64,000 nucleotides of DNA from an uncultured Desulfospira sp. GTDB lineage: Bacteria; Desulfobacterota; Desulfobacteria; Desulfobacterales; Desulfobacteraceae. The position numbers were made by a program, and so were the translations under genes. Where the stretch lies: NCBI GenBank assembly GCA_963663165.1, contig OY760175.1, positions 1,632,001 to 1,696,000 on the forward strand, in the 5' to 3' direction. Shown in pieces: positions 1,430-19,703 of this stretch. Below the pieces are notes generated by a model. The model did not search any database. It was given only the letters and a program-made list of their open reading frames with translations, and was not told where the DNA came from. How positions within the stretch are numbered: position 1 is the first letter of the stretch; each line of letters begins with the position of its first letter.

Positions 1430-1495
1430 ATAATGGAGCTTCACAAAAAAGTATTAAATAAACGAGACTTTCATCTTAATCAAATGGAGACAAAA

Positions 1496-2318: not shown

Positions 2319-2339
2319 CCCTCAAGAGCGAGCCCTCCA

Positions 2340-2386
2340 GGGCGGCCCCCGGAAATCTGCTTTCCGGGACCGCCCGCCTTTTTTTT
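2340..2386 (+). terminator. Rho-independent terminator after fld-TPR
   Basis: GC-rich stem (gggcgg..ggaaa / tttcc..ccgccc) followed by T8. The T run overlaps a TTGACG-16-TATAAT promoter (2385-2412) for the next gene. Confidence 0.65.
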
Positions 2387-2429
2387 GACGCGCTGTTTTT
2401 ACATTTTATAATATAAGGAGAATCTCAAA

Positions 2430-3143: not shown

Positions 3144-3145
3144 GA

Positions 3146-3255
3146 CGTAACTGTTCAGCAGTGCCCCATCTTCGCTCATTCAGGCCTTCTCACATAGCAA
3201 CAGTATGCTACGAAGGCCTGACTAAACAAATATGAAGCACTGATGAACAGTTACG
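3146..3255. repeat. Palindromic intergenic element
   Basis: cgtaactgttca (3146-3157) / tgaacagttacg (3244-3255); inner arms caggccttc / gaaggcctg. Confidence 0.75.
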
Positions 3256-3295
3256 GACCCTGGTTTTGCTTAGTTTTCAGCATTAGCTGAATAGT

Positions 3296-3440
3296 TAGTG
3301 TCTGAACGAAAACCTGGAAATTTTGTCGAGTACAAGGCGGGCTGAAATTTTAACCGGAGGAATACATTGAGTATTTTGAGGATTAAAATTTCAGCCCAAC
3401 GCAGTAATCGGCAAAATTTACGGTTTTCGTTCGGGCACTA
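3296..3440. mobile_element. 145-bp MITE/REP-like palindromic element
   Basis: 19-bp terminal inverted repeat with 17/19 match (tagtgtctgaacgaaaacc / ggttttcgttcgggcacta); inner 15-bp stem gggctgaaattttaa / ttaaaatttcagccc; non-coding. Confidence 0.75.
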
Positions 3441-3480
3441 GTTACAATAAGACAAGGTTGAGGGGCCTCACCCCCATCCT

Positions 3481-4977
3481 TCATCCTTCATCCTTCACCC
3501 CTAATTCCAGGGCCTGGTCAATCAAGCGGCAAAGCTGCTCATAAGAGGGGACGCCCACATGGAGTTCCCCGTTGATGATCAGGGTGGGGGTGGATGTAAT
3601 GCCGGCCTGCCGGACGCCCTCAAGCGCCTGGTCCAGTCTTTCAAGTTCTTTGGGGTCAGCCGTGCATTCGTTGAACCGGGCCATGTCCAGGCCCAATTTC
3701 CGGGCATAGGCCAGGGCATCTTCAAAGGCGGGCTTTTCCCCTGAAAACAGCAGATCATGAAACGCCCAGAATTTTCCCTGCTCCTGGGCGCAGCCGGCAG
3801 ACAGGGCAAGCTTTTTGGCCCCGGCATGGATGCTTTCCAACGGGTTGTCTTTGAATACCCATTTAACTTTGTCTTTATAGGTTTCCCTGATCCGTTTGAC
3901 GGTTTCATGGCCCCTCCGGCAGGCGGGGCAAAGATAATCAGACAATTCGACCACCATCACCGGCGCATGGGAAGGGCCGGTTGACGGGCATCCCTCAATA
4001 ACCACGCGAGTGTTTGGCAATGGCGGCTTTTCCAGATGGACGGTTACCGGAAAGGTCTTCTTTAACTGTTCACAATGATTCAGAATCGCTTCGTTTTCCC
4101 CGGCCAGGGTCAGATACTGCCGGATTTTTTGTTTTATCTGCTGTTCACTGCCTGTCCAGTTTCCCCAGCGCCGGTATTGTCTGCTCTGATAATAATATGA
4201 AACGGTTGCATCATCCGGGGCCTTGGCCTTTGATGACAACTCCTTTGTGAGGGCCGCCACCGTAATCCCCTGTTGGGCCGCATCTTTTTCAAGCAGGATT
4301 TCATTGATCCGGTCATCCAGGGCCATTTCTTTCATTCGATAGATCTTGGTCTGCATTTGATAGAGCCTTGTGGTCAAAGGCTGTTCAATCTCTTCTCTGG
4401 TAATTTTTTGCCCATCCACCACGGCCAGGATATCTGACGTCGCTTCCAATGCGGCATGATCGGAAACCGCCCCGTAGGGTGACGCCACCAGGGCATCGGA
4501 AAAGACATAAAAGCAGAGTCCCAGGCTCAACATCCACGGCAGGCGTTTGGGATCAAAAAATGAAAAAAACAGGATGGACATCAGGATAAAATTTACGGCG
4601 CAAAGCACACAGACAAATTTCATCTTCACCATAATCACAATCAGAACCGCCTCGACGCCGCAGCCGGCCATGACGGCAAAAAACAGCCAGGAGGGACGGA
4701 TAAAGTATAAGAGCACAAGAGAAAGGTAATAGGCAATCCCCCACCAGGGAACCGGTATGCCCATCATGGTGTAAGGCACGGTTTCCCGGCACCCGTCACC
4801 AAATGCCCCGCAAAAAGAGGCAATCCATGCCACCCGGGTTTCAAAGGCCGACATGACGGCAGCCGCCACCCCGAGGGCAATCACAATGCCAATGGCCTTT
4901 TTAAAAAATGAAGATCTGTCTTTAAAAGGATTTTTCTGTGTGACGATATTGGGTTGATCTGTTTTGGGCTGCGCCAT
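3481..4977 (-). CDS. VKOR-DsbA/thioredoxin fusion membrane oxidoreductase
   Basis: N-terminal TM domain with loop Cys pair and CVLC; C-terminal DsbA domain with SDYLCPAC and TPT cis-Pro loop. Confidence 0.85.
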   Translation of the reverse strand: MAQPKTDQPNIVTQKNPFKDRSSFFKKAIGIVIALGVAAAVMSAFETRVAWIASFCGAFGDGCRETVPYTMMGIPVPWWGIAYYLSLVLLYFIRPSWLFFAVMAGCGVEAVLIVIMVKMKFVCVLCAVNFILMSILFFSFFDPKRLPWMLSLGLCFYVFSDALVASPYGAVSDHAALEATSDILAVVDGQKITREEIEQPLTTRLYQMQTKIYRMKEMALDDRINEILLEKDAAQQGITVAALTKELSSKAKAPDDATVSYYYQSRQYRRWGNWTGSEQQIKQKIRQYLTLAGENEAILNHCEQLKKTFPVTVHLEKPPLPNTRVVIEGCPSTGPSHAPVMVVELSDYLCPACRRGHETVKRIRETYKDKVKWVFKDNPLESIHAGAKKLALSAGCAQEQGKFWAFHDLLFSGEKPAFEDALAYARKLGLDMARFNECTADPKELERLDQALEGVRQAGITSTPTLIINGELHVGVPSYEQLCRLIDQALELGVKDEG

Positions 4978-5095: not shown

Positions 5096-5386
5096 CTACA
5101 CCCTGTTTTTCCAATGGCCGGGTTTTCGATGCAGAGTCATTACGGCAACGACTCGTATTTCAGGCGTTTTGATTCGATAAAGAACCGCATAAGGGAAATG
5201 GGAAAATAGATGCCTTCGGATATTACCTTCAATAACAGGCCATGTTTCCGGGAACTCAACTATATTCTTAACAGCAATATCCAAATCTTTTAAAAACTTA
5301 AAACCAAGGTTTTCTGCCTGGATTTCGTAATAAATGGCGGCATCCATCATCTCTTCCTCGGCTTCAGGATGATAAATTACTTGCAC
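5096..5386 (-). CDS. RelE/ParE family type II toxin
   Basis: HPEAEEE, FPYAVLYR and HRKPGHW patterns; overlaps the antitoxin. Confidence 0.9.
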   Translation of the reverse strand: MQVIYHPEAEEEMMDAAIYYEIQAENLGFKFLKDLDIAVKNIVEFPETWPVIEGNIRRHLFSHFPYAVLYRIKTPEIRVVAVMTLHRKPGHWKNRV

Positions 5387-5610
5387 GACAACGCCTTGGT
5401 TGCCGATTCCATTACTTCGGCATGGGTTTTACATGTCACTCTACCTGCAGATATCTCGCTATCCCTTCTTTTTGCCTCATCCATCCACAGTCTATTGTGA
5501 CTGACAATATCAACATCCACCAGGCTGTCCAGAAGAACGTCTGCCAGAATGGCCCTTGATTTTGGCGGCAAGGATAATGCTTGAGCCGTGACTTCCTCTA
5601 TAGTCGGCAT
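5377..5610 (-). CDS. Addiction-module antitoxin (TIGR02574-like)
   Basis: ALSLP..RAILA..LLDSL..W..EAKRR; immediately upstream of the toxin. Confidence 0.85.
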   Translation of the reverse strand: MPTIEEVTAQALSLPPKSRAILADVLLDSLVDVDIVSHNRLWMDEAKRRDSEISAGRVTCKTHAEVMESATKALSCK

Positions 5611-5843: not shown

Positions 5844-8060
5844 TTATTTTTTTTCAGGCGGCGGCAGTGCCGGGCGGCCGGACAGGGCGGGGCGGGCCGC
5901 GTTCACCACGGCGGTCAGGGTGACCAGGTTGTGGATCAGGGCCCCGGCCAGGGGCGAGATCATGCCGGCGACCATTAAAGAAAGGACAAGGGCATTGGCG
6001 CCCATGGCAAAGGCATAGCTTTGTTTGATCACGGACAGGGTGTTTTTGCTGGATTCCAGGGTCCAGGCCAGGCTGGACAGTCCGCCCTGCTGAAGGACGA
6101 TGTCGGCATACTCCAGGGTCACGTCTTCGCCGGCCTCGCCCACGGCAAAGCTCAAAGCCGCCCTTGAAAATGCCGGGGTGTCATTGATGCCGTCCCCGGC
6201 CATGGCCACCACGGAACCGGGAAAATCAGCTTTTCTTTTTTCGATCCACCGGGCTTTGTCCTCGGGGGACATGCCCCATTTCACCTCATCAAATTTAAGG
6301 GCACGGGACAGCTCAGTGGTTCCGGCCCGGGTGTCGCCGGTGAGCAGGGCAATGTGGGTGATCCCGGCCTTTCTTAACCGCGCCAGGGTCTTAGGGGTGG
6401 CATCCTTGCGGATCATGTGGGAAGCGTGGATACACCCCAGAAGATGGCCGTCACAGGCCACAAAGACCAGGCTGCCGGAATCATCGGGATCTTTCTCCCC
6501 TGCTCCGTGGCCGTTTTTCAGGATACCCCGGTCTTTCATGAATTTTTTGGAGCCGGCCAGAATGGTCCGGCTGCCCGTGGTTCCGGCAACCTGTGCCTTG
6601 ACCCCGAGTCCCACAAAATACTTTCTGGATTCACAGGCCGGCACCTCCAGGCCTGTTTCATGGGCCTTCCGGGTAACGGCCCGGCTGATGGGATGATTCC
6701 AGGGCTGGAGCGCGGCAGCGGCAAACCCGAGAATGGTCTCTGGTTTGTACCGCCGGTCCATCACCTCAATATCCGTCACACTGGATACAGACTCGGTCAG
6801 GGTTCCGGTTTTGTCCAGGGCCAACGTGTTCACCGTTGCCGCGGTTTCCACATGGGAGCCGCCTTTGATGAGAATCCCGTTGGCAGCGGCATTGCCCATG
6901 GCCGTGGAGATGCCTGTGGATGTGGACAGGCGCAGGACGCAGGGACAGGTGACCATAATAGAGGTAATGGCCAGGAACAGGGACCCGCTCATTAAAAAGA
7001 CAATGGCGGCAAGGCCCAAAGAGACAGGAACCATGGCCTGGGAAACGGAAAGGCTGGTCCGGCCCAGTTCTCCCAAGTCATCCCGGGCCGATTCAATGAG
7101 CCGGATAATGGCGGCCATCCGGGTCTGCTCCCCGGTTTTCTCCACGGTCACCCGGATTTCACCCTCTTCCACCAGGGTTCCGGCCATGACCGGCATGCCT
7201 TCAAGTTTCACCACGGGCAGGCTTTCACCGGTCATGGCCGCCTCGTTGACCAGGGCCGTGCCTGAAAAAACCGTTCCGTCCACGGGGATGGATGCGCCCT
7301 GGCCCAGGACAATGACGTCTCCGGGGACGATATCGGTGATATCCACCTGAACCTGTACTCCGTCCACCAGTTTCCAGACCCGGGTCTGTTTGCCGGTGAG
7401 CATGTCCCGGACCAGGCGGCCGGTATGGTCCTGGATCCTGGATTCCATCCATCCGGACAGGTTGTACAGCCAGGCCACCAGGAGCGCGGTCAGGATATTG
7501 CCGGTAAACAAAGAGACATACAGCAGACCCGTAGAGATCAGGCTCATGTCCACGCGGCCCGTGGCCTTTACGTTTTCCACGGCCTGGCGCTGGATGGGCC
7601 GGGCCAGATAAAGGGTCAAAAGCCCCGGGATGCTGATGATCCCCCCGATAAGGGCGGCAGAGGAAAAGAGGGGGGCGGCGGCCCGCCGGAGCAGAAGAAA
7701 GGAAAGATAAAGCCCGGAAAACAACAAGGTCATGCCGGACACGTGGGACCGGCACAGCTGGGGGTCCTTTTCCGAACCAGACTTAATACTTTTGGAATCT
7801 GCCGTACCTTCCATGAGGCCGGTCAGTTTCCGGGAAAGGCCGTTGACCAGTTCGATGACCTGCCGGACCGGTATATCCCGGTCCGGATGGACCAGAATCA
7901 AAGACCCGGACTTGGGCCTGACCTGGGCCATGGCCACCCCGTCCATCCGGGCCAGTTCTTTTTCCACGGCCTTGCAACAGGCCGGCTGGCCCCGGAAAAT
8001 CGAAAACTGAATCCGGGTCCGGTATGGTTCCGCCTGCCGGATTTTATAACTTAGTGTCAC
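5844..8060 (-). CDS. Heavy-metal P1B-type ATPase (CPC), fez-cluster associated
   Basis: TGES, CPC, DKTGTLT, HP, GDGIND, C-terminal HN; Cys-poor HMA-like N-terminus with RxR. Confidence 0.9.
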   Translation of the reverse strand: MTLSYKIRQAEPYRTRIQFSIFRGQPACCKAVEKELARMDGVAMAQVRPKSGSLILVHPDRDIPVRQVIELVNGLSRKLTGLMEGTADSKSIKSGSEKDPQLCRSHVSGMTLLFSGLYLSFLLLRRAAAPLFSSAALIGGIISIPGLLTLYLARPIQRQAVENVKATGRVDMSLISTGLLYVSLFTGNILTALLVAWLYNLSGWMESRIQDHTGRLVRDMLTGKQTRVWKLVDGVQVQVDITDIVPGDVIVLGQGASIPVDGTVFSGTALVNEAAMTGESLPVVKLEGMPVMAGTLVEEGEIRVTVEKTGEQTRMAAIIRLIESARDDLGELGRTSLSVSQAMVPVSLGLAAIVFLMSGSLFLAITSIMVTCPCVLRLSTSTGISTAMGNAAANGILIKGGSHVETAATVNTLALDKTGTLTESVSSVTDIEVMDRRYKPETILGFAAAALQPWNHPISRAVTRKAHETGLEVPACESRKYFVGLGVKAQVAGTTGSRTILAGSKKFMKDRGILKNGHGAGEKDPDDSGSLVFVACDGHLLGCIHASHMIRKDATPKTLARLRKAGITHIALLTGDTRAGTTELSRALKFDEVKWGMSPEDKARWIEKRKADFPGSVVAMAGDGINDTPAFSRAALSFAVGEAGEDVTLEYADIVLQQGGLSSLAWTLESSKNTLSVIKQSYAFAMGANALVLSLMVAGMISPLAGALIHNLVTLTAVVNAARPALSGRPALPPPEKK

Positions 8061-8407
8061 TTCTTACCCGCGGCTTCTGCCTCCACCTCCGCCTTGGCAT
8101 CCTCATACTTTTCTTTCATCTCTTCAATACCCGCCGAAGTCGCCGCCATCACCTTGGAAAAGGTTTTAACCACGGCTTTTTGAACGGTTTCATTGGTCAC
8201 CAGAAGGGTGACGCCGGCGCCAAGGGCCGCGCCCTTCCAGAAGGTGGCAGAGGTTACATCAAGACTTAAAAAAGAGGTGGGGGCGGGGACATAGGCCTGC
8301 TGCTGTGCCATGGGCTGCTGGGGATACACCGGCACATAGCTGACCTTATCCTGGGCCTGGGCGTAGGTTTGGGCCTGATAGGCCCCCTGGGCTTGATCAA
8401 TACTCAT
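8057..8407 (-). CDS. Small membrane protein with GxxxG motif (YtxH-like/Fez-accessory-like)
   Basis: FWKGAALGAGVTLL hydrophobic segment plus charged helical tail; overlaps the ATPase start. Confidence 0.75.
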   Translation of the reverse strand: MSIDQAQGAYQAQTYAQAQDKVSYVPVYPQQPMAQQQAYVPAPTSFLSLDVTSATFWKGAALGAGVTLLVTNETVQKAVVKTFSKVMAATSAGIEEMKEKYEDAKAEVEAEAAGKK

Positions 8408-8522
8408 CTTGAAATCTCCCTTTCTCGAAAGGATGAAGGCTGACGGATGAAGGATGAAAATGGCTCATCCGGCAGTCTTCGTTACTTTCAAAGTTCATCT
8501 ATTATATTCTGGTCTCTAATAA

Positions 8523-8933
8523 CTAAAACTTATTAATCAAATAACTGACGCCGGTAGCGGCGGCAATGGTGACGGCAAGTCCGGCCACCCCGCCGTTGGT
8601 CAGGGTAGATGAGGCGGCGGTGGCGGTGGCGGCGGCCACGCCGCCGATAGCCCCTTTGGCCAGACTGTCGGTCATGGCCTGGCCCATGGTCATTTCACCC
8701 TTGCCCACCCGGTTCAAATTGGCACCCAAGGTCCCGGTGGTGACCACGATCATGCCGAACATGCCGGCTGCGGCGGCCTGGTTGGCAATGGCCGAAGTGG
8801 TTATTTTAGTGGGGTACTGAACCGGAACGGCCTGCACACTGGTGTTCACCGGTACATACTGGTGCAGCGGCACGGTCTGGTAGGCCATGGTCTGGATGCC
8901 CGAAGGCTGTTGGGTTGCGTATAAATGTTCCAT
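8523..8933 (-). CDS. Gly/Ala-rich small membrane protein
   Basis: Hydrophobic G/A-rich segments; shares a GAN..M..A....AKG pattern with 16388..16816. Confidence 0.75.
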   Translation of the reverse strand: MEHLYATQQPSGIQTMAYQTVPLHQYVPVNTSVQAVPVQYPTKITTSAIANQAAAAGMFGMIVVTTGTLGANLNRVGKGEMTMGQAMTDSLAKGAIGGVAAATATAASSTLTNGGVAGLAVTIAAATGVSYLINKF

Positions 8934-9013
8934 ATATAGTTTCCTTTTTTTTAAGTGATCAGGCTAAAGGGGGTCAGACTGAGGGTTGCCGACGCTCAAT
9001 CAGCATCGCCGCT

Positions 9014-9688
9014 TCATCCTTCATCCTTTTTCACAGTTCCCCCAAAAATTCCGCCAAATGTTTTCCCCATGGCATTTTTGACCGACTTGTTCGTGAGCAG
9101 AACCGTGGCTGCGGCCCCGACCAGGGCGCCTTTCCAGAACTGGTCATCCTGGGAGGTTTCCGAGTACAGGGTCTTGACCACATCGGCTACAGTGGCGTCG
9201 CCTTCGGCAAAATCCTCAACAGATTTAATCACCCGGGCATAATCGGGCGGGGCCTGCTGTGCGGCGGCAGGGTCCTGGGCCTGGTAAGGGGCCTGCCCTA
9301 AAGAGGACTGGACCGCCATTCCCGCCGGCACCGCATAGGTATAATACAACTGGCCGGTGCGGGGGTCCATGACCAGGCCTGTGGGCTGGGCGGCCATGCC
9401 CTGGGCCTGGCCGGTTTCAGGCTGCTGGACACCCGGGGCGGCCTGGGATTGGCCGGCATAGTCCGGGTGAATGCCCTGGGCGGTTGTACCGGCAGGGTTA
9501 ACGGTTTCCCGGGCCTGTCCGGCCGGGGGGGCCTGATGATCGGCGGCTGCGGCCTGACCGGGTGAAACGCCCGGGGCCGGATTCTCCGGAGCCGGGCCGC
9601 CCGGGGCCGCTGCCTGATCCGTGCTGTGGCCAGATTGGGCCTGGCCCGGGGCCTGATGTAAGGTGGGGTTACTGGTTGGGGCTTCCAT
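9014..9688 (-). CDS. Pro/Gln/Ala-rich protein with C-terminal FWKGAxxGA membrane motif
   Basis: AGGAGG RBS; low-complexity N-terminus; C-terminus paralogous to 8057..8407. Confidence 0.8.
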   Translation of the reverse strand: MEAPTSNPTLHQAPGQAQSGHSTDQAAAPGGPAPENPAPGVSPGQAAAADHQAPPAGQARETVNPAGTTAQGIHPDYAGQSQAAPGVQQPETGQAQGMAAQPTGLVMDPRTGQLYYTYAVPAGMAVQSSLGQAPYQAQDPAAAQQAPPDYARVIKSVEDFAEGDATVADVVKTLYSETSQDDQFWKGALVGAAATVLLTNKSVKNAMGKTFGGIFGGTVKKDEG

Positions 9689-9818
9689 GGTTTACCTCCT
9701 GAAGCGCTTCTTTTATCATACTGATTAAACCTGCCGAAAAGAAATCGTCGGGCAGGCTCTTTATGGATTCAATGATGATCAATTAAAAAGGTTGCGAATT
9801 GAAATAGTTATAAAATAT

Positions 9819-10355
9819 TTATCCATCATGCACAAGAACGAATCCCCCCCTGCCCCGGATGTCCACAATATCCCTTACCGTCAGGAAGAGCAGCCTTGGG
9901 GCCTTAAGCCCGTATGCCTTGAACGACCATTTAAAAGCAAGGTCAATGGTTATTTTTCCGGATTCTTTTGCCACATAAAAGGTAATGGGCAATTGCCGGC
10001 GTTCTCCGATAAATTCGAGGACCGCAAGGATGTCGGCCCTGTAACGGCCGTCATCCTGAAGGACGAATTCCTTGCATTCCGTCATCTCAACTGAGGCTTC
10101 CGGGAATTTTTCCTGCTGCATGTAATCGACCATGGCCTTGTTCCGGTCGGCATACCCGGTGTCAAAAAACCGGGTCTGGGCCGTGGCCGAAGCGTTAAGG
10201 ATTTCAAGATGTTGAAAATCTATGCTGATTTGGGCGTCAATGCCCTTGATGCTCCACCCTTTAAAGGTGTGAAAAGGGGCATAGGCCGTAAAATCAACCC
10301 TGAAATCCCGGGACAGGGTATAGGCGTCTAATGTTTTTTCAATTTGGCAAGTCAA
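9819..10355 (-). CDS. YceI-like family protein
   Basis: F.TG..DRN..M..Y...EKFP and YGLKAP patterns; overlaps the ATPase stop. Confidence 0.7.
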   Translation of the reverse strand: MTCQIEKTLDAYTLSRDFRVDFTAYAPFHTFKGWSIKGIDAQISIDFQHLEILNASATAQTRFFDTGYADRNKAMVDYMQQEKFPEASVEMTECKEFVLQDDGRYRADILAVLEFIGERRQLPITFYVAKESGKITIDLAFKWSFKAYGLKAPRLLFLTVRDIVDIRGRGGFVLVHDG

Positions 10356-12657
10356 TCGGTTGTCCTTTCCGGGGGGGGATTTCGCCCTTGGTTTTGCCTG
10401 ACAGGGTATCCGGATTTTTATTTTGTTTCATGGGTTCTGACGGGGGTTCCCAGGTCAGAAGGCGGCCGGAATTGACTAGAATCCCCCCGGTGTGGAAAAT
10501 ATGAATCATCCCGGCCATGACCGGCGAAAGAATGCCCAACATGCCCAGCGCCGCACCAATAAGATCAGTAGATACAGCAAAATAGTGGTTCTGGTCAATA
10601 ACTTTCATGGTCTGGTGGCTTAAATTTCGCACTTTGACCAGCCCTTCCAGGTTGGCATCGGCCAGGGCGATGTCGGCCGCCTCCAGGGCAACTTCAGCCC
10701 CGCCGGCCCCTACGGCCACGCCGATATCGGCCCGGGCAAGGGCCAACGCATCGTTGACGCCATCCCCGATCATGGCCACCATGTGGTCTTTTTTCAATTC
10801 CTCCACCCGATCGGCTTTTTCTTCGGGCAGAAGCGGGGCCCGGCAATCGTCAAAGGGGAATATATCCATCATGGTCTGGGCCACCTCTTTGTTGTCGCCG
10901 GTGACCAGGTGGATGGATCTGACCCCGTCGGCCTTGAGATGGTTCAACACGGCCACGGCTTCAGGCCGGATGGGGTTGGCAATACCCATCATGCCCGTGG
11001 CACTGCCGTTTTTGGATACAAAGATGACCGTTCGGCCCTTGTTTCGTTCAGCCGCCGCCTTTTTATCAAACCAGCGAAGATCCACCTCGTTTTCTTCCAT
11101 GAACTGCCGGTTGCCCACCAGGACCACTTCCTCACAGCCGATATTGCAGGAAACCCCCCGACCGGCCTTGAATTCACAGACGGCGTGGGCCTCAACGTCC
11201 AGGTTTCTCTTTTTGGCTTCAGCCAGGATGGCCCGGGCCATGGGGTGCTGGTTATGGGACTCGGCCGTGGCCGCAAGGGACAGGATCATGTTTTCGGAAA
11301 TGGACGGGGTCCGGCCGGTAATGGTCATGATCTCGGGCAGGTCCTGGGTTAAGGTGCCGGTCTTGTCAAAGCAGAAGACATCGGTTTTGCCCACCCCTTC
11401 AAGATAAAGGCCCCCTTTAATAAGGATGGAGTGTTTGGCGGCATTGGCCAGGGAGGCGGTAACCGCCGACGATGCGGCCAGGACCGTGGCACAGGGACAG
11501 GACATGACCAGCATGACCGTCAGCGCCCGCAGAGGATCCAGGGTAAACACCAGGGTGGCCAGGGTGGCGGCAAGCCCGATCTTAAGCAGCCGGGCCGCCA
11601 GTTCATCGGCCTTGTGTTCGGCCGGGGCCTTGTTGGCCAAAGAATCCTCCACCATTCTCATGATACCGGCAAGGTAGGTGTCTTCTCCGGTTTTTACGGT
11701 CCTTATAAATAAGGTCCCCTGGGAAATAATGGTGCCGGCATAAACCTTGTCCCCGATATTTTTCACCACGGCCTCGGCCCTGCCGTTAATGGTGGCCTCG
11801 TCCACTAAGGCGTCCCCGTCCAGGATTGTACCGTCCACCGGGATCTTCTCCCCGGTATGGGCGGCCACAATATCATCCACGCGGATCTGCGCCACCGGGG
11901 TTTCCACTTCCATGCCGTCGACCATCACATAGGCATTGGGCGGGGTAACGTCCAGGATATCCCTGATGGCCTTGCGGGACCGCTGGGCCACATAGTCTTC
12001 CGTGGTCTCGGCCACATTGTATATCCAGAGGATCTGGATGGCGGAAAAGGCCTCTCCCATGCAGATGGTGGCAATGGCACCGGCGGCCAGAAAGGGTTTA
12101 ACCGTCACCTTTTTCTTTTGGGCCGTATCCGCAATTGCCTCTTTGACCAGGGGAATAGTGCCGGCCATGGCGGCCAGGCCCAAAAAGCTCAAGGGATTCT
12201 GGGCCAGAACCGCACCGAAAACAAACCGGCGGACAACGGCATAAACCATGACAGAGGACAGCCATGCCACTCTTTTTAATTTGGTCCCAAATCCGGCGTC
12301 ACCGGCGCATTCGCACGCCAGGATATCTGCGGCAGGCCCGGCAGCGGGTTCCAGATCGAATTTTTTCGGGGATAATACCTGGCTGAGGATGGCGGCCATA
12401 ATGGTTCGCGCGGTTACTGCCGACGAATCAAAGGTAACAATGACGGACCCGGAAACCGATCTGGCCTCGGCCCCTGTAATTCCGTCAACCCCTTTCAGGT
12501 AAAGGGCCATCCATCCGGATTTTTTTTCATTGTACCGAAGGGCTTTTACCTGAACCCGCATCCGCCCGGCCATGGACTGCCGGACACAGATCCCGTTCTT
12601 GCTCAAAATACTTTTACTGATATAGCTTACACTATTATATTTTTTGTTATTCATCAA
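10339..12657 (-). CDS. P1B-type ATPase-like protein (CPC) with TGE replaced by NGR
   Basis: CPC, DKTGTLT, HP and GDGVND present; the A-domain reads VDEATINGRAE. Confidence 0.9.
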   Translation of the reverse strand: MMNNKKYNSVSYISKSILSKNGICVRQSMAGRMRVQVKALRYNEKKSGWMALYLKGVDGITGAEARSVSGSVIVTFDSSAVTARTIMAAILSQVLSPKKFDLEPAAGPAADILACECAGDAGFGTKLKRVAWLSSVMVYAVVRRFVFGAVLAQNPLSFLGLAAMAGTIPLVKEAIADTAQKKKVTVKPFLAAGAIATICMGEAFSAIQILWIYNVAETTEDYVAQRSRKAIRDILDVTPPNAYVMVDGMEVETPVAQIRVDDIVAAHTGEKIPVDGTILDGDALVDEATINGRAEAVVKNIGDKVYAGTIISQGTLFIRTVKTGEDTYLAGIMRMVEDSLANKAPAEHKADELAARLLKIGLAATLATLVFTLDPLRALTVMLVMSCPCATVLAASSAVTASLANAAKHSILIKGGLYLEGVGKTDVFCFDKTGTLTQDLPEIMTITGRTPSISENMILSLAATAESHNQHPMARAILAEAKKRNLDVEAHAVCEFKAGRGVSCNIGCEEVVLVGNRQFMEENEVDLRWFDKKAAAERNKGRTVIFVSKNGSATGMMGIANPIRPEAVAVLNHLKADGVRSIHLVTGDNKEVAQTMMDIFPFDDCRAPLLPEEKADRVEELKKDHMVAMIGDGVNDALALARADIGVAVGAGGAEVALEAADIALADANLEGLVKVRNLSHQTMKVIDQNHYFAVSTDLIGAALGMLGILSPVMAGMIHIFHTGGILVNSGRLLTWEPPSEPMKQNKNPDTLSGKTKGEIPPRKGQPIDLPN

Positions 12658-12802
12658 ATTAATATCCTTTAAATTGCCAATTTAACAGTCTGATTATATA
12701 GCCTATTTTGTTAGTAAAATCAAACTATTATTTGATAATTTTAAAAGGCCGGGGGGCGTCATAAAGTTACCTATAGTTAAAATCTCCTTTAAAATTAAGA
12801 GG

Positions 12803-12831
12803 TTGACACCCATCAAACCCTGATTTATTAT
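12803..12831 (+). promoter_or_regulatory. sigma70 promoter TTGACA-17-TATTAT
   Basis: Upstream of the two small + strand genes. Confidence 0.7.
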
Positions 12832-12899
12832 ATACCTGACGCTAAAATTAAGTGTCCGAAAGTTCTTAATCAAATTTAAAGCTTTAAAAGGAGGATATT

Positions 12900-13073
12900 A
12901 TGTTTTATCTGCCCCTTACCACAAACCCATTGGGATGGGTAATCCTTGGCGTGGGCGGTTATGCCCTGTACAAGGCTGGAAAGAAAAAAGGTGAGGACGA
13001 GGCAGCTGCCTCCCAGATCACCGAACCTCCTGCCGATGATAAGGCAAAACCAGAAACCAAAGGAGCCAAATAA
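12900..13073 (+). CDS. 57-aa single-TM protein (below ORF-track cutoff)
   Basis: AGGAGG RBS; MFYLPLTTNPLGWVILGVGGYALYKAGKKKG...; TAATG overlap with its paralog. Confidence 0.85.
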   Translation: MFYLPLTTNPLGWVILGVGGYALYKAGKKKGEDEAAASQITEPPADDKAKPETKGAK

Positions 13074-13351
13074 TGAGCGTTCCCGTATATGCCCCCGCAC
13101 TGGCCGTTAACCCCTTAGGATGGGCCGTAATCGGTGCCGCCGGATATGTGACCTATAAAGCCGGGAAAAAAGCCGGTAACAATTCCCAGGAAAAAGCCGT
13201 CAAACCCGGGCTGGCCGACAGGGCCATCAAAGGCGCCATGAAAACTGTTTACCGGGCAAAGAAGAGTGTAAGTGAATCTTTTGGCAAAAGCCGGGAAAAA
13301 TATTCCAGCATGTGGAGTGAAGCCCAGGAAGAAGTTAAAGCAGCAGAATAA
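13073..13351 (+). CDS. Small single-TM protein, paralog of 12900..13073
   Basis: NPLGWAVIGAAGYVTYKAGKK motif plus helical tail. Confidence 0.8.
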   Translation: MSVPVYAPALAVNPLGWAVIGAAGYVTYKAGKKAGNNSQEKAVKPGLADRAIKGAMKTVYRAKKSVSESFGKSREKYSSMWSEAQEEVKAAE

Positions 13352-13420
13352 TCAGCTGCCAGCCATTAGCGGTTAGCCTTTCGTGGTCAGCCGTTTGCTT
13401 AGAATCTTTCTTTAACCGCC

Positions 13421-13472
13421 AAGGCCCCGAGGATGTTCTTAAAATCGCCTTTCATCAACGGGGCCTTTTTTT
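13421..13472 (+). terminator. Probable terminator
   Basis: aaggccccg / cggggcctt stem with a large loop, followed by a T run. Confidence 0.5.
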
Positions 13473-14226
13473 ATTCTCCTGTTCTGACAATCACTGCGCC
13501 GGCTTTTTCGTGGGCCAGGTAAAGTCGCAGCCCTTGAGGGCTGGACACGGTAACGGACTGGGTTCTCGGGGCATGAAGTCCCTGGGCCGCCTCCACGGTT
13601 TCAAGGACCAGGCTCACCCCCGGGGTGACCCCGTGGGTTTTCAAATGGCGGACCCCTTGAGGCCCCCCCATGATATCGGTCACCTCAAAGGCCTGGTTGG
13701 GTTTGGCGAAGTAGAACTGGCTCTTTTGCCCTTTTTCGCAGAATCCCCATATTTTGGCAGCTTCCCCTTCGGACAGCCGGGTCCGTTCCTTCCGGTTGAT
13801 CACGGTGATGTAATCCATGTGGGGCAGGGCCCGTAAAAATTTAATCTGAGTGTCTTCCTTGAGCCCGAGCCGCTCCAGGCTTTCCGCCAAGTACACGCCC
13901 CCGGAATGGATTTCAATATGGGCTTCCTGGTTTTTTTTCATTTCCGTTAAAGGAATGATGTTGCCGTCGTTTAAGTGGGCATAGACCTTTGTGGCCAGGC
14001 CGGCGGGAAGAACCACATCCCCTTTGGGCCCCCTGACCCGGACAGAGTAATAGTTAAAATCCTGGTCATGGCGGGTCAGTTTTCCGCCCACAAACAGGCC
14101 GAGCCGGTTCAGCCAGGTTTCAAGGGAAGGTTCGGTGATCTCCAGGATGACCAGCTCTGTATTGATGGGTGCATCAAGCAAGGATGAATACATGGGTTTT
14201 ATATTTTCCTGATGGTCTGGTTTCAA
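13471..14226 (-). CDS. Tandem FeoA-domain protein
   Basis: Three FeoA-like units (RLGLFVG, RLGLKED, HGVTPG). Confidence 0.75.
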   Translation of the reverse strand: MKPDHQENIKPMYSSLLDAPINTELVILEITEPSLETWLNRLGLFVGGKLTRHDQDFNYYSVRVRGPKGDVVLPAGLATKVYAHLNDGNIIPLTEMKKNQEAHIEIHSGGVYLAESLERLGLKEDTQIKFLRALPHMDYITVINRKERTRLSEGEAAKIWGFCEKGQKSQFYFAKPNQAFEVTDIMGGPQGVRHLKTHGVTPGVSLVLETVEAAQGLHAPRTQSVTVSSPQGLRLYLAHEKAGAVIVRTGE

Positions 14227-14237
14227 GGCACAGGGGC

Positions 14238-16391
14238 TTATTTCTTTTCCCCGGCCTTACGGTTATTTTGTTCCGGGCTTTCACCCGCTTTGGACTGCTG
14301 CTCTTCAATGCCTTTCAAGGGCTGCTTTTCCCTTAACCCCGCATAGGACAGAATCCCCACCGTGCTGGTATTATGAAGGATGGCGGCGGTGACCGGGTTG
14401 ATCAATCCAAAGGTGGCCAGCATCAGGAAGAGCGAGTTAAGCCCCACAGCAGAAACAAAGCTGTGTTTAATGGTATCCTGGCACCGCAGGGCGATTTCCC
14501 GCCCGGCCAACAGACAGTTTAAGTTCTCCTGCATTAATATCACCTGGGCCGACTCCTTGGCAAGGTCCGCCCCTGAGGGCAGGCAGATGCCCACATGGGC
14601 CGATACCAGGGCCGGTGCATCGTTGACCCCGTCGCCGATAAACCCGAGATACGCCCCCTCTTTTTTAAGGTCTTCCACAATGGCGGCCTTGTCCTCGGGC
14701 TTAAGTTCGGCCCTGACCTCGTCCACGGCCGGCAGTTCTTTGGCAAGCGCCTTTGCCGTAACTTCCGTATCCCCGGTAAGAATGATAATCTTTTTAATAC
14801 CTGTTTTTTTCAAATTGTCCAGAACTTTTGGCGCTTCGGGCCGGAGTTCATCCCTTAACCCCAGTATTCCCACAAGCTTTTCTTCCCTTGTCACATAGAG
14901 CAGGCTCTTGCCCTGCTTTTGAAAGGCCAGGGCCGGTTTGTCCACCAGGGAGCAGTCAATGCCTTCATCATCTTCAACAAAATGGCGGGATCCCACCAGG
15001 ATATTGTCGTTGCTGATATAGGCCGACACCCCGTGGGCCACCACAAAGTCCACCTGGCTGGTGGGGGGCAGGTCAAGCCCCTTTTCTCTGGCAGCCCGTA
15101 CCACGGCGCGGGCGGCCGGGTGGGAGTAATGTTCCTCTGCTGAAGCGGCCAGGGCCAGTACCTCATCCGGGGCCATGCCGTTCACCGTGTGAACGTCGGT
15201 CACGGTCAGCTCTCCTTTGGTCAATGTGCCGGTCTTGTCAAAGACCAGGGTATCCAGCCGGGCCAGACTGTCCATGGCCTGGGAGCCTTTGAGCAGAACC
15301 CCCTGCCGGGCCGCCGTGTACATGGCCACCCTTACCGCCACCGGGCTGGACAATTTGATCACACAGGAATAGTCCACGGTAAGAACGGCGGCCGCCTTTT
15401 CCAGATCCCGGGTCAATCCGAAAAGGCCGACCCCCAACCCCAAGGTAACCGGGACCAGCTTGTCGGCGAGTTCATCGCTTTTCTTCTGGGCTTCGGATTC
15501 GTAATTGAGGGAGTCTTCCAAAAATTTGGAAATCCGGGCCACCGAAGTTTCAGCGCCCACTTTCAGGGCCTTGAACACGATCCGCCCGTCTTCAATGACC
15601 GACCCTGAAATCACCTCAGTACCGGGCTTCACATGAACGGGAACAGATTCGCCGGTGACGGAACTCTGGTTCACGGCAGCCTCGCCCCTGACCACCACCC
15701 CGTCCAGAGGAATCATCTCGCCGGGCCCGCAGACCACCTGGTCTCCGATCCTTGCATCATTAAAGGGGATCTGGACCTCCTGGCCGTCCACCTCTATCCA
15801 GATATGTTCGGTCTCGGGCTTGAGCAGGCTTTTCAGCAATTTGTTGGTCCGGTTCTCGCTGAGCGCTTCCAGGTATTCCCCCAGGGAAAGCAAAAATACA
15901 ATGGTTGCGGCCGTAAAATAATCCCTGCGGAACAAGGAAAAGGCCACGGCTGATCCGTCCAGGACCTCCACACTGATTTTACGGTTTACCAGACAGACCA
16001 GGGCATCGATCATAACCGGCAGGGACAGTATCAGGGCGATGGGCATGCAGCCCAGAGCCGGCAGAACCAGACAGCTTGCGGCAAGGGCCCCTTTTGCGGC
16101 CAGATTAATCAAAGACGGGCCGTTTTTCCGGTTGTTTTTCCCGTTAAAGGCATCCAGGGGCAGGTCACTGATACAGGCCAGAATCGAAGACCTTGTTTCA
16201 GGCCGGCCGTCATACCGGGCGATAATGGAGGATGCCCGGGTATTGATCCGGGCATTTTCAACCCCGGGGATGCCTTCAAGGCGAGCCTCCAGAAAATCCG
16301 GGTCCAGTTCCGGGTCCCTTAAAAACCGCCCCTTAAGGCGGATCCGGTGGGGCAGTTCATTGACGATCTGAACCGGACGCGGCGCCATCAT
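14238..16391 (-). CDS. fezB: P1B-6 ATPase, FezB-like (ferrosome ATPase)
   Basis: N-terminal RIR, TGES, membrane DYSC in place of CPC, DKTGTLT, HP, GDGVND, LHN. Confidence 0.8.
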   Translation of the reverse strand: MMAPRPVQIVNELPHRIRLKGRFLRDPELDPDFLEARLEGIPGVENARINTRASSIIARYDGRPETRSSILACISDLPLDAFNGKNNRKNGPSLINLAAKGALAASCLVLPALGCMPIALILSLPVMIDALVCLVNRKISVEVLDGSAVAFSLFRRDYFTAATIVFLLSLGEYLEALSENRTNKLLKSLLKPETEHIWIEVDGQEVQIPFNDARIGDQVVCGPGEMIPLDGVVVRGEAAVNQSSVTGESVPVHVKPGTEVISGSVIEDGRIVFKALKVGAETSVARISKFLEDSLNYESEAQKKSDELADKLVPVTLGLGVGLFGLTRDLEKAAAVLTVDYSCVIKLSSPVAVRVAMYTAARQGVLLKGSQAMDSLARLDTLVFDKTGTLTKGELTVTDVHTVNGMAPDEVLALAASAEEHYSHPAARAVVRAAREKGLDLPPTSQVDFVVAHGVSAYISNDNILVGSRHFVEDDEGIDCSLVDKPALAFQKQGKSLLYVTREEKLVGILGLRDELRPEAPKVLDNLKKTGIKKIIILTGDTEVTAKALAKELPAVDEVRAELKPEDKAAIVEDLKKEGAYLGFIGDGVNDAPALVSAHVGICLPSGADLAKESAQVILMQENLNCLLAGREIALRCQDTIKHSFVSAVGLNSLFLMLATFGLINPVTAAILHNTSTVGILSYAGLREKQPLKGIEEQQSKAGESPEQNNRKAGEKK

Positions 16392-16816
16392 GGGGCCCCG
16401 TCCTTTCCGGCATGGGGTTTGGGCTTCATGGCCCGGTCAATGGCATAGCCGGCCCCGGCCAGAGCCGCTGCGGTCAGGGCAATTTCCCATACGGTCTTTT
16501 TGGGGGTCAGGGATAAAATCACCGTGGCGGCAGCGCCTTTGGCAATGCCGTTGACCACGGCCTTTGTTCCGGTCATGGTGTTGTTCTGCACATCCACCAT
16601 GTTGGCGCCGATGGTGGCGGCACTGGCTATGGCCAGGGTGGCCGCAGCAAATTCCAGGGGGGTGTAGGTATCCTGGGGGATGGGGATGGGGGCAAAAAAA
16701 GGCCCCGGTGCAGGGGTTAACGCAAGCCCGGTTCCATCAGAAGTTAAAAAGACCGGCCGGGCTGATCCGGCGGCGATCCCGGGAGCGCCGCCGGCCGTAT
16801 TCATCTGGGTTTTCAT
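16388..16816 (-). CDS. Ala-rich small membrane protein, paralog of 8523..8933
   Basis: IGANM..M...AVVNGIAKGAAA; overlaps the fezB-like start. Confidence 0.75.
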   Translation of the reverse strand: MKTQMNTAGGAPGIAAGSARPVFLTSDGTGLALTPAPGPFFAPIPIPQDTYTPLEFAAATLAIASAATIGANMVDVQNNTMTGTKAVVNGIAKGAAATVILSLTPKKTVWEIALTAAALAGAGYAIDRAMKPKPHAGKDGAP

Positions 16817-16934
16817 ATTGTTTCCGTGGCTATCAATTTTTTAGAGGCACTTGAAATATTGAATTTAATAAGTTTTAGCAAATTTGAGCCGTAAAAACAA
16901 TTGATAAGTCTAACCGCCCCTTTGCCGTTTGCCG

Positions 16935-17444
16935 CTATACCGCGTCACAGCATATTGATTCACACATGGGTTCCCTGTCCGGTTCGCCAAAAATGCTTAA
17001 AATCCGGTCTGCTGTGACCTTGGCCGCAATGCAGGATTTGGTTTCTGCGGTAATCCCAAGCCGGCCGCCGGTGTCCATGGGCTCATAGCCGTAAGCCGTG
17101 CGCACCACCTTTTCATAGGCGCAACGAAGCTGCCGGAAAGAGGCCTCAACTTCCGGGTATTCATTGGAGGCCCGGAAAGGCAGCCGGATAAAATCCTCAA
17201 TTTCCCCTCTTTTAAAGTGGGGAACACTCAAATAATGGAACCGTTCAGGCTGCCAGCCGGGGCGCCGCTCGTTTGTCCCGGGCATGCAGGTGCTTGAATG
17301 GGAATCGGGCACCACCGGGATGCTGCTCTCGATGCTCACCGCATTGACGGCCAATTTTTTTTCAAAATCCTCAAGGATCAGGGAGTATTTCAGAAAAGGC
17401 CTGAAATTGCCGCGTTTTTTCGTTATGGTCCAGTTGATCTGCAT
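16935..17444 (-). CDS. Hypothetical protein
   Basis: Start MQINW 4 nt after the VWA gene stop; third gene of the AAA-VWA operon. Confidence 0.75.
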   Translation of the reverse strand: MQINWTITKKRGNFRPFLKYSLILEDFEKKLAVNAVSIESSIPVVPDSHSSTCMPGTNERRPGWQPERFHYLSVPHFKRGEIEDFIRLPFRASNEYPEVEASFRQLRCAYEKVVRTAYGYEPMDTGGRLGITAETKSCIAAKVTADRILSIFGEPDREPMCESICCDAV

Positions 17445-17448
17445 AAGT

Positions 17449-18723
17449 TTAACTCTCCAGACAGATGGTGTTGCCAAAGGGCGGTTTACTGCCGCCGGGA
17501 CCGGCCCCGCCGGGACCTGTCTTTACCCAGAGGACCGGGTATGGGGGCCGGTTTGAAGGAAACAATTTACATTCAAGATCGGTCAGGTAAATCAGGCAGG
17601 CCGGGCTGACCCGCTGATCAGCGATAAACTCAAAGGCCGGGCGAAAATCGGTTCCCCCGCCCCCTTTGGGCTCAAACTTTATGGGCAGGTCCCACTGATT
17701 AAACACCTGATACCGGTTCACGGCCATATCCGTATACAACAGGTGAAGCTTGGACGGGAAACATTCCAGAATGGCAGATAGTTCTGCGGCAAACTGGTCC
17801 AGTTCTTCGGGCAGGACAGACCCTGAGGTATCAAGGGCCACAGCCAGTTCGCTCAACTCATGGGTGTTCAAAGAGGGAAAATAAAGGTTCTGGTGAATAT
17901 ACCGCCGGTTGGGCGTGGTCCAGGAGTAATCCGACCGGGCTGAATTCTGGATAAACCGGGACAAAAGCTGCCGCCACCCCAGTTTGGGATTAATCCTTTC
18001 CTGGACCAGCCGCTCCAGCCCCTTTGGCAGCTTTCCCATGCGCCGGGCATTGGCCGCGGCCTGGACCAGGGCCTGGTCCCAGTCAATGTCCTCATCTTCC
18101 CCGGTTCCCGGCGCATCTTCCAGGTCCCGGACCTCGCCGGCCATGCCCGGATCAGTTCCGGGATCTTCCTGATTTTCATCCTGGCCGGTATTTCCCGGGT
18201 CATCAAGTGGCAACGGGTTTCGGCCCTGTTCGGGATCTGTCTCTTTCAGGGCTTCACTGTTGGGGTCGCCGACTTGCCCACCCCTGTCCTCTTCATTTTT
18301 CTCATCCGCCAGGGTCTGATAAACCGCATCGGCGCTTTTGTTCCGGAACCTGTCATCAAACAAAAACCCGTCGGGCAGGTCCATGCCCGCGTCCAAAAGA
18401 ATGGGATTAACGGCATAATCACAGGCCCGGTTCCACAGATCCTTGTCCCGGCTGCCGCGCCGTATGTGGTGGCCGCAGGCCGGGTGCATGACCGTATGGG
18501 CGCAAAGGCCGATGAGCTTTTGCCTTGGCAGGGTGCTGATGTAAGAAGGGTTATAGGCAAATACCCGGCCGTCGGTCCAGGCGGTGTGGCAGGAAGGGTC
18601 CGGCGTGACCTTTAACCTAAGGGCCAGGGACGCAAAAAACGGCTGGGCCATGACCATGGAAATCCTGGCCCGGACCACCCGGTCATGGGCAGACTGTTCT
18701 ATGGAGGAAAGGGGCTTGATCAT
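17449..18723 (-). CDS. DUF2201-type metallopeptidase-like/VWA domain protein
   Basis: TAWTDG, HTVMH...H, WN.ACDYAVN, acidic linker, MIDAS DTSGS, GGGGTDF, YLTD; ATGA overlap with the AAA gene. Confidence 0.85.
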   Translation of the reverse strand: MIKPLSSIEQSAHDRVVRARISMVMAQPFFASLALRLKVTPDPSCHTAWTDGRVFAYNPSYISTLPRQKLIGLCAHTVMHPACGHHIRRGSRDKDLWNRACDYAVNPILLDAGMDLPDGFLFDDRFRNKSADAVYQTLADEKNEEDRGGQVGDPNSEALKETDPEQGRNPLPLDDPGNTGQDENQEDPGTDPGMAGEVRDLEDAPGTGEDEDIDWDQALVQAAANARRMGKLPKGLERLVQERINPKLGWRQLLSRFIQNSARSDYSWTTPNRRYIHQNLYFPSLNTHELSELAVALDTSGSVLPEELDQFAAELSAILECFPSKLHLLYTDMAVNRYQVFNQWDLPIKFEPKGGGGTDFRPAFEFIADQRVSPACLIYLTDLECKLFPSNRPPYPVLWVKTGPGGAGPGGSKPPFGNTICLES

Positions 18724-19703
18724 ACCAGAACTTGGGCATGGCATGAGGCCCAGTCTGCGAAGGCCGGGGTCCGGACCAGGCCGGCATGTTTACGGACCGC
18801 CTCCCGAACCAGGAGAACGGAAAATTCTACGGGCAGCCGGGATGCCCAGGCCATGACGGGGTCGGCGGTATCTTCTTTAAGGGCATGGCTCATCATTTCG
18901 CACAGGGCAAAGAGGACCGCCGGATCTTTGGGGATCTCAATGCCCTCAGGGTCTTCTATAATATCGGCGGCTTCGGGAAGGCAATGCCAGATTTTTAGAA
19001 ATCCTGAAAACTCTGCGGCAGCGCCCTTGCCCACGGCACCGGCCACCATGGAACCAAGAAGGCCCGGGTCAGGAGCGGCCTTTACCAGCCTTGAGACAAA
19101 TTCCCAGGACCTTGGGGAAGGAAAGGCCCGGTCGTCTTTTTCAGGATCAAAATCGTGGAGCAGGGCGGGCCGGAAACGAATAAAGGCAACGACCTCCGGT
19201 GCAATGGCATTGGCACCGGCCCAGGTGAGCCAGTCCGGCACATCCACCTCAAATTCCAGATGAACAAACCGGTTGGCCAGGGCCGAGGGCATGCGATGGG
19301 AAACGGCCCGGTCCTGCTCCCGGTTGCCGGCAGCGATCACAGACCAGCCTTCAGGGAGCTCATACTCCCCTAACCGGCGGTCAAGGACTAACTGGTAACA
19401 GGCCGCCTGAACCAGGGGAGGCGCCGCGTTCAGTTCATCCAAAAACAGCACCCCCCTGCCCTGCCGGGGAAGAAAGCCCGGGGCGCACCATTGGGAGACC
19501 CCGTCCGGGGTGATCTTAGGGATTCCCCGTAAATCCACAGGGTCCAGGAGAATGGCCCGGATGTCAATGAGGGAGAGGGACAAAGCATCGGCGGTCTGCC
19601 GGACCACCTGGCTCTTTCCAATGCCCGGCGGACCCCAGAGAAACGCGGGCTGCCGGATGTCAAGCAAGGTATTCAGGGCCGTTGAAATTTGGGATGGCTT
19701 CAT
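18720..19703 (-). CDS. MoxR/AAA_5-type AAA+ ATPase
   Basis: GPPGIGKS, LFLDELN, AAGN, ALANRF, SPRSW. Confidence 0.9.
   Translation of the reverse strand: MKPSQISTALNTLLDIRQPAFLWGPPGIGKSQVVRQTADALSLSLIDIRAILLDPVDLRGIPKITPDGVSQWCAPGFLPRQGRGVLFLDELNAAPPLVQAACYQLVLDRRLGEYELPEGWSVIAAGNREQDRAVSHRMPSALANRFVHLEFEVDVPDWLTWAGANAIAPEVVAFIRFRPALLHDFDPEKDDRAFPSPRSWEFVSRLVKAAPDPGLLGSMVAGAVGKGAAAEFSGFLKIWHCLPEAADIIEDPEGIEIPKDPAVLFALCEMMSHALKEDTADPVMAWASRLPVEFSVLLVREAVRKHAGLVRTPAFADWASCHAQVLV

Follow-up and report, generated by a model that had tools for sequence, protein, structure and literature searches.

A composite fez-type gene cluster with three P1B ATPases in an uncultured Desulfospira species

Ferrosomes are a recently found iron-storage organelle of bacteria, and the determinants of their metal content and membrane shape are at issue. 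In Rhodopseudomonas palustris, S. putrefaciens and D. magneticus, ferrosomes depend on the fez operon (10.1101/2020.01.10.902569). Here, we describe a fez-type cluster from an uncultured Desulfospira sp. (assembly GCA_963663165.1; 6.74 Mb in one contig). It occupies positions 5844-16816 of a 64,000-nucleotide stretch of contig OY760175.1 (positions 1,632,001 to 1,696,000), which is called the window below. The cluster codes for three P1B ATPases (ATP1, ATP2 and ATP3), for several small membrane proteins and for two accessory proteins.

In R. palustris, the required fez operon has six genes. The S. putrefaciens proteins are described as FezD (soluble), FezE and FezG (with GxxxG motifs), FezF (two helices), FezB and FezC. 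FezB is a P-type ATPase of the P1B-6 subgroup, which is marked by D[Y/F]SCA, HNxxT and an arginine-rich N-terminus. FezA is a further GxxxG protein of such clusters, and the larger ones already include a "FeoA-domain containing" protein and a second pump, FezH (10.1101/2020.01.10.902569).

A second related system is the PacL-Ctp effluxosome of Mycobacterium tuberculosis, in which multiple pumps and multiple small proteins work together. PacL has one helix with a small-xxx-small motif, followed by an E/A/K-rich cytoplasmic helix. CtpC, which has a CPC motif and is grouped with P1B-6, reportedly exports zinc across the plasma membrane and depends on a small membrane protein encoded upstream, which binds the N-terminal domain of the pump (PMC13460109).

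The cluster shares with the described fez clusters a FezB with D[Y/F]SC, HNxxT and an arginine-rich N-terminus, an ordered triad of small proteins homologous to three from R. palustris, a second arginine-rich pump with other transmembrane (TM) motifs, a FeoA-domain protein and feoAB nearby. It differs in having a third pump clade (CPC plus HNxxT) and in the lack of a separate arginine-rich protein of the FezC/FezD type in the genome. A YceI-like protein, a pair of single-helix proteins (s57/s92) and a second, divergent MamC-like gene are extra. With the effluxosomes, it shares a CPC pump that is placed with P1B-6 and has no N-terminal CxxC domain. Also shared are single-pass small proteins with a small-xxx-small helix and a cytoplasmic part rich in E and A, whose genes directly precede that of a pump, and the combination of multiple pumps with multiple small proteins. 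In contrast to the effluxosome genes, the small proteins are not members of DUF1490 (the PacL family) as judged by HMM search, and the genes form one contiguous cluster that includes FezB and MamC-like proteins.

Gene order and the three pumps

The region holds 12 genes, all of them intact open reading frames (ORFs); those listed in a sequence-only reading are situated where it had placed them. The cluster is organized as three transcription units and is composite. Unit A (minus strand, 16816 to 13471) consists of s142, fezB and the gene for a protein with three FeoA-like repeats. Unit B (plus strand, 12900 to 13351) consists of s57 and s92. Unit C (minus strand, 12657 to 5844) contains, in this order, the genes for ATP2, the YceI-like protein, s224, s136, s116 and ATP1. 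Stop and start codons overlap at three junctions (s142/ATP3, ATP2/YceI-like and s116/ATP1). A consensus scan found a near-consensus promoter-like site (TTGACA-17-TATTAT; 12803-12831, plus strand) 5' of s57, and a pattern scan found a terminator-like hairpin (13447-13464) 3' of s92. A 56-aa ORF at 12703-12873 was discounted as a gene; its sole match is in the sister species (G001), and it is located between the divergent units, in their AT-rich promoter region.

All three pumps match the heavy-metal P-type ATPase model TIGR01525 (432-493 bits, cut-off 346), in agreement with the three P1B ATPases of the sequence-only reading. Their pairwise identity is just 27-32%.

ATP3 (14238-16391, minus strand, 717 aa) is FezB, a P1B-6 pump, as judged by motifs and phylogeny. 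It has DYSCV in TM4, HNTST in TM6 and the arginine-rich HRIRLKGR at residues 15-22. It has no CxxC domain; HMA_2 matches its N-terminus weakly. Among its best 120 homologs, which span 54-100% identity, the TM4 motif is DYSCA in 77, DYSCV in 42 and neither in one. All 120 have HNxxT, and RxR occurs within the first 40 residues in 117.

Two trees were computed. FastTree was applied to 105 P1B ATPases from the window and the fetched loci, leaving out the near-identical copies from the sister species and ORFs of more than 1000 residues. In this tree, the three pumps of the window fall into one superclade of 44 rows (support 100), apart from the CopA-, ZntA-, CPH-, P1B-4- and P1B-5-like rows. Within it, ATP3 and the R. 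palustris FezB belong to a clade of 26 rows (support 99). For 58 chosen rows, a quick tree search was done in IQ-TREE under a site-mixture model, with SH-aLRT support values. It gave a FezB core of 18 rows, including ATP3 and the FezB of R. palustris strain XCP (support 100), an ATP1 clade of 11 rows (99), an ATP2 clade of 18 rows (100) and the superclade (97). The R. palustris FezB in both trees is from strain XCP, while the strain tested by experiment is CGA009. The sequence-only reading had taken the pump with DYSC and HN motifs for a P1B-6 FezB; a grouping outside P1B-6 would have refuted this reading, and the pump groups inside.

These trees make FezB, ATP1 and ATP2 sister clades, all within a superclade of pumps whose N-terminal domain is arginine-rich and not of the CxxC type. 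ATP1 and ATP2 were placed as sisters with a support of only 86. The three clades are firm but their branching order is not, because the search was short and several outgroup branches are long. Two pumps from other genomes with related motifs were encountered. One is a deep-branching DYSCA/HNLGT pump (L095, genome G018, 7319-10461) with an adjoining flavodoxin and, upstream, a 95-residue GxxxG protein. The other is a DYSCG/HNATT pump (L096, genome G027, 1410-4009), which is found near the ATP1 and ATP2 clades, outside the FezB core, and adjoins a gene for a 124-residue arginine-rich protein.

ATP2 (10339-12657, minus strand, 772 aa) has SCPCA and HIFHT, and its relatives carry (A/S)CPCA and H-x-x-H. 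Its N-terminus is arginine-rich (GRMRVQ) and matches HMA_2 (E 4e-10). It agrees with the description of FezH as a second P1B ATPase in a fez cluster, with an arginine-rich N-terminus and TM sites other than those of FezB. Thus, ATP2 probably is the published FezH.

ATP1 (5844-8060, minus strand, 738 aa) has TCPCV in TM4, HNLVT in TM6 and RTRIQF at the N-terminus. Its family is sharply bounded, with 106 clusters down to an E-value of 5e-128 and the next match at 5e-101. CPC together with HNxxT is present in 98 of these 106 and RxR in 100. Homologs are annotated as "manganese/zinc-transporting P-type ATPase C" in their sources. By its motifs, ATP1 would be CtpC-like. HNLVT fits HNxxT, not H-N-x-(S/T) as printed in the review (PMC13460109). 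No pump with CPC and HNxxT was found in the genome of Mycobacterium barrassiae.

Small membrane proteins and accessory genes

Three proteins of unit C correspond to consecutive proteins of the R. palustris operon. The R. palustris locus (L031) has six genes in a row. The first codes for an arginine-rich protein of 118 residues. It is followed by genes for proteins of 103 residues (with FWTGVAIG), 160 residues (with two hydrophobic stretches) and 199 residues, by fezB and by a gene for an arginine-rich membrane protein. The three window proteins are s224 (9014-9688, minus strand), a long GxxxG protein with a P/Q/A-rich N-terminus and the helix FWKGALVGAAA; s136 (8523-8933, minus strand), a MamC-like membrane protein with two helices; and s116 (8057-8407, minus strand), a short GxxxG protein with a conserved E/K/A-rich C-terminal helix. 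s116 matches the 199-residue protein, which is encoded directly upstream of FezB (blastp E 4e-18), and s224 matches the 103-residue protein over the helix (E 3e-4). s136 aligns gapless with the 160-residue protein through the core. A blastp comparison aligned neither s136 nor s142 with the 160-residue protein; this link is made by the former alignment and by hidden Markov models (HMMs).

Thus, the triad has the order of the R. palustris operon: a GxxxG protein, a MamC-like two-helix protein and a GxxxG protein with a charged C-terminal helix. The GxxxG motif is located in the hydrophobic helix (GAALG in s116, GALVG in s224), and an iterative HMM search retrieved 58 ORFs of this family across the fetched loci. 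The triad recurs beside these pumps in 15 further mapped loci. s224, s136 and s116 are therefore called FezE-, FezF- and FezG-like; these labels follow gene order and the one-line descriptions of the preprint, not named sequences.

Three paralog pairs had been noticed in the sequence-only reading, and all three were recovered by blastp within the cluster (13-protein database): s116/s224 (8057/9014; E 9e-10), s136/s142 (8523/16388; E 9e-7) and s57/s92 (12900/13073; E 3e-11). The further proposal, that the small proteins are of Fez type, applies to the first two pairs, which are homologous to R. palustris fez proteins, but not to s57/s92, which match no known Fez family.

s136 and s142 belong to a family that, by profile comparison, is one conserved Fez-cluster family homologous to the magnetosome membrane protein MamC (NF038051; PF26373 according to the ESM Atlas). 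s142 (16388-16816, minus strand) is a divergent FezF-like member, assigned by paralogy and by the family HMM. Like MamC, the s136 family has two hydrophobic helices and a conserved loop, and it aligns with nearly the whole model (positions 5-94). Nine of 12 family members from fez-type loci match NCBIfam MamC (E 5.6e-15 to 0.006), among them the R. palustris member (E 3e-5) and s136 (E 0.006, 16.8 bits); no match was obtained for s142 and the two members nearest to it. When the 12 members were made into a profile, it retrieved 374 representatives at E <=0.001 (215 at 1e-10) among 1.84 billion. When the best 150 of these database members were considered, 136 matched MamC at E <=0.001, the best one at 1.6e-27. 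An HMM built from the 150 matches exactly two ORFs genome-wide, s136 (1.3e-29) and s142 (4.2e-17); as the set may include the cluster representative of the window itself, it is not fully independent. A comparison of the MamC-like profiles A2 and A7 by hhalign gave a probability of 99.7, and the nearest ESM Atlas clusters are "MamC family" (0.89; 182 of 256 features). The local Pfam search gave no MamC match for the s136 family. No family score reaches the equivalog cut-off of NF038051 (100 bits), and no true MamC was found in the genome. Therefore, this is a homologous family and not MamC itself, and in contrast to MamC its genes are part of fez-type clusters, in bacteria that are not magnetotactic. 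MamC is not mentioned in the preprint 10.1101/2020.01.10.902569, and no paper that ties MamC to ferrosomes was found in a search that did not extend to the Nature version and the supplements, where such a link may have been made.

In the sister species G001, s142 has been deleted, and what remains of it, its first codons, continues into FezB (L093 15090-15560, compared to 16350-17000 in the window). At this locus, about three tandem copies of a unit of about 75 bases are inserted upstream.

s57 (12900-13073, plus strand) and s92 (13073-13351, plus strand) are small proteins with a single TM helix. Both have one N-terminal helix (NPLGW..GAAGY; in s57, NPLGW..GxxG..YKAGKK) followed by KAGKK, and s92 adds a K/E/A-rich cytoplasmic helix, which gives it a PacL-like build. 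They are kept together in G001, L011 and L012. The family is narrow, with 18 homolog clusters (Desulfobacter, Desulfobulbus and Desulfocicer), none of which has a Pfam domain. A search with DUF1490 (PF07371) gave no match to s57/s92 at E <=10, and two of 22 family members matched, at best with E 0.04. The same search gave no match in the window region of the genome and nothing usable in the genome as a whole, in 14 control genomes and in five actinobacterial genomes. An ESM Atlas lead for s57/s92 towards PacL/DUF1490 reached only 0.83. Homology between the s92 and s116 families was not accepted (hhalign probability 11%), and s92 did not align with the 103-residue protein of R. palustris.

The sequence-only reading had also noticed YceI-like and triple-FeoA genes between the others, and domain searches agree for both. 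The gene at 13471-14226 (minus strand) codes for a cytoplasmic protein of 251 residues with three FeoA-like (SH3-like) repeats. PF04023 (FeoA) matches residues 91-160 with 48.7 bits (cut-off 23), and when each third was scanned alone, FeoA was the sole match (E 0.12, 5e-7 and 0.03). The AlphaFold2 model (pLDDT 87.5) has three beta-rich repeats. Its best VIA-align matches are FeoA proteins (2k5f: Z 11.8, root mean square deviation 1.8, 72 aligned residues); Foldseek of this model against PDB returned nothing at E <=0.001. A FeoA-repeat gene follows FezB in ten other loci and in most of the mapped loci from Desulfobacterota, in agreement with the "FeoA-domain containing" protein of the published clusters. 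The YceI-like protein (9819-10355, minus strand) lacks a signal peptide and matches PF04264 with 33.5 bits (cut-off 23.7). Among all loci, its gene is restricted to the window, G001 and L012.

Distribution and modular make-up

The whole cluster is found in the same order in G001 and in a Desulfobulbaceae metagenome-assembled genome (L012). Four layouts were distinguished among the mapped loci. Layout I is the triad with FezB (R. palustris, Halochromatium). Layout II consists of an ATP2-type pump, the triad, FezB and the FeoA-repeat protein (six loci, from Desulfovibrionaceae and others). Layout III has ATP2- and ATP1-type pumps and the triad, with no FezB-type match at E 1e-120; it is found in L094 (G003), L099 (G305) and L100 (G409), and partially in L098 (G244) and L101 (G407). 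Layout IV is that of the window, G001 and L012. By this comparison of gene content, the cluster is a FezB module joined to a two-pump module that also exists without FezB.

In an even sample of 401 genomes from the phylum, at least 23 have a FezB-type, at least 23 an ATP2-type and at least five an ATP1-type pump; these are lower bounds, as two candidates were scored per genome. FezB and ATP2 types occur together in 12 genomes of this sample, and in eight of these they are on the same contig, 2-5 kb apart. Among 101 sampled Desulfobulbaceae genomes, 11 have an ATP1-type, 17 a FezB-type and 13 an ATP2-type pump. All 11 ATP1-bearing genomes have FezB, and ten of them have ATP2. The order FezB-ATP2-ATP1 on one contig is seen in eight of the 101. 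Further clusters of this kind in Desulfobacter and Desulfobulbus are indirectly indicated by 19 ATP1-family clusters for which the longest contig has the same length as that of a listed ATP3 homolog (judged by eye). In the family to which the window belongs, 24 genomes were covered and a close FezB was found in G001 only, so that the distribution is patchy. The GC content of the cluster is 56.3%, compared to 50.05% for the genome. This is weak evidence for transfer, because the other P1B genes of the genome are GC-rich too (53.7 and 58%).

The sequence-only reading had considered the multi-pump system unusually elaborate. The three pumps stand, but the wording was too strong, as clusters with FezH and a FeoA-domain protein have been published and the three-pump order recurs in Desulfobulbaceae. 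Fez clusters with more than one pump, with GxxxG proteins and with FeoA-domain partners are thus already described (10.1101/2020.01.10.902569). As far as the literature search reaches, four points are new: a third pump clade occurs inside fez clusters, the layout with three pumps recurs, the triad is also found in clusters that lack FezB, and a conserved Fez family is homologous to MamC. Three sister pumps that differ in metal-site residues and belong to one operon set are a natural experiment on specificity, and the homology to MamC would link ferrosome and magnetosome membranes. Surveys centred on FezB would overlook the FezB-less clusters, and such compartments may therefore be more widespread than the reports suggest.

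Proposed function and genomic neighbourhood

We favour the reading that the cluster specifies a compartment of the fez type and assign it a probability of roughly 60%. The small proteins of the triad would build and scaffold an internal membrane compartment or membrane domain. FezB would pump Fe(II) from the cytoplasm into this compartment, where it would be stored as a mineral. The FeoA-repeat protein may couple FezB to the Fe(II) supply of the cell or to its regulation. ATP1 and ATP2, which keep the histidine of TM6 and have an added CPC, would load the same compartment, either with another metal (for example Mn, Zn or Co) or, when conditions differ, with Fe(II). In the MamC-like proteins, the conserved loop between the helices may touch the mineral, which is how MamC contacts the mineral in magnetosomes. 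A ferrosome is favoured because FezB and the triad are homologous to a fez operon tied to ferrosomes, with the gene order kept. Iron storage is further supported by the nearby feoAB and flavodoxin genes.

Several observations weigh against this reading. FezB has V at the A position of the published motif. The label FezH for ATP2 derives from a description and not from a named FezH sequence, and the motif pair of ATP1 resembles that given for CtpC, which reportedly exports zinc at the plasma membrane (PMC13460109). No separate protein of the FezC/FezD type was found in the genome, where HMA_2 is restricted to the N-termini of ATP2 and FezB. The deletion in G001 makes s142 dispensable there. Since clusters resembling unit C occur in five genomes with no FezB-type match, unit C need not serve FezB. 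A scan for Fur boxes found none with at least 14 of 19 matches in the intergenic regions of the cluster. The window has ten sites with at least 13 of 19 matches, compared to 6.0 in shuffled sequences, and the lone 14/19 site falls inside the fezB gene; the consensus used is the E. coli 19-mer.

The two CPC pumps could equally be exporters of the plasma membrane. Unit A, with unit B, might then be a minimal ferrosome module next to a separate efflux platform of the effluxosome kind (unit C), where CtpC-like exporters for Zn, Mn, Co or Cd would be stabilized and held together in clusters by small single-pass proteins. We consider this split, the main rival, unlikely overall but worth weighing. 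Apart from the CtpC motif pair and the Mn/Zn annotation of ATP1 homologs, it draws on the PacL build of s116 and s92, on the FezB-less clusters and on the position of s116 directly upstream of ATP1, with overlapping stop and start codons, which recalls the small upstream protein that CtpC needs (PMC13460109). Opposed to it are the poor DUF1490 results and the triad of unit C, which is also that of the R. palustris fez operon, for which there is an experimental link to ferrosomes. In addition, layout II places the triad between an ATP2-type pump and FezB, which ties ATP2 to FezB. It is tempting to speculate on a variant, held just as tentatively, in which arginine-rich pumps together with GxxxG and MamC-like proteins are a toolkit common to ferrosomes, effluxosomes and MamC. 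The ATP2/ATP1 module with its triad, which occurs alone in FezB-less genomes, would then build a storage compartment of its own, independent of FezB and perhaps for a metal other than iron, and would here have been joined to the FezB module for loading by three pumps.

An organelle might be absent altogether, the cluster being an island for resistance to heavy metals, in which three exporters that differ in specificity are accompanied by membrane chaperones of their own. All three pumps do match generic heavy-metal models, and the patchy distribution, the elevated GC content and an adjoining ParE/antitoxin pair would fit a mobile island. However, ATP3 groups with the R. palustris FezB, the companions are iron-uptake genes and a FeoA-repeat protein rather than regulators of metal resistance, and the GC content says little, given that of the other P1B genes. 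An island of this kind is therefore improbable. Even less credible is that part of the cluster is a decaying duplication without present function. The loss of s142 in G001 and the paralogy of the pumps could be read in this way, but all ORFs are intact, and each pump has a higher identity to the corresponding pump of L012 (42-66%) than to its neighbours (27-32%). The order is also kept in the eight Desulfobulbaceae genomes.

The iron-related genes that the sequence-only reading had mentioned are indeed nearby: feoB at 21020-23551 and feoA at 23609-23902 (both minus strand), and a flavodoxin gene at 1433-1939 (plus strand; PF00258, E 2e-32). Its assignment of the host as a sulfate reducer is also reasonable, if worded as sulfate/sulfite reducer, because the genome has a dsrA with 603 bits (curated cut-off 393).

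Other genes surround the cluster. Next to the flavodoxin gene, 1-1337 codes for a metal-transport pair, a NicO-like transporter and a DUF1007 protein. The ParE toxin gene and the "addiction module" antitoxin gene (5096-5610) are directly downstream of ATP1. On the other side, a 180-residue ORF without a family match (16935-17477) is kept only in G001 (91% identity). Between the cluster and feoAB, at 17449-19703, there is a DUF2201 metallopeptidase/VWA-like gene and a gene for a MoxR-like AAA_5 ATPase; these two do not adjoin the cluster in L012. Directly upstream of feoA (23996-28902), a response regulator with PAS-GGDEF-EAL domains and a hybrid histidine kinase are encoded. Farther away, at 45848-47587, the window codes for a protein in which TPR repeats are fused to a YcaO cyclodehydratase domain.

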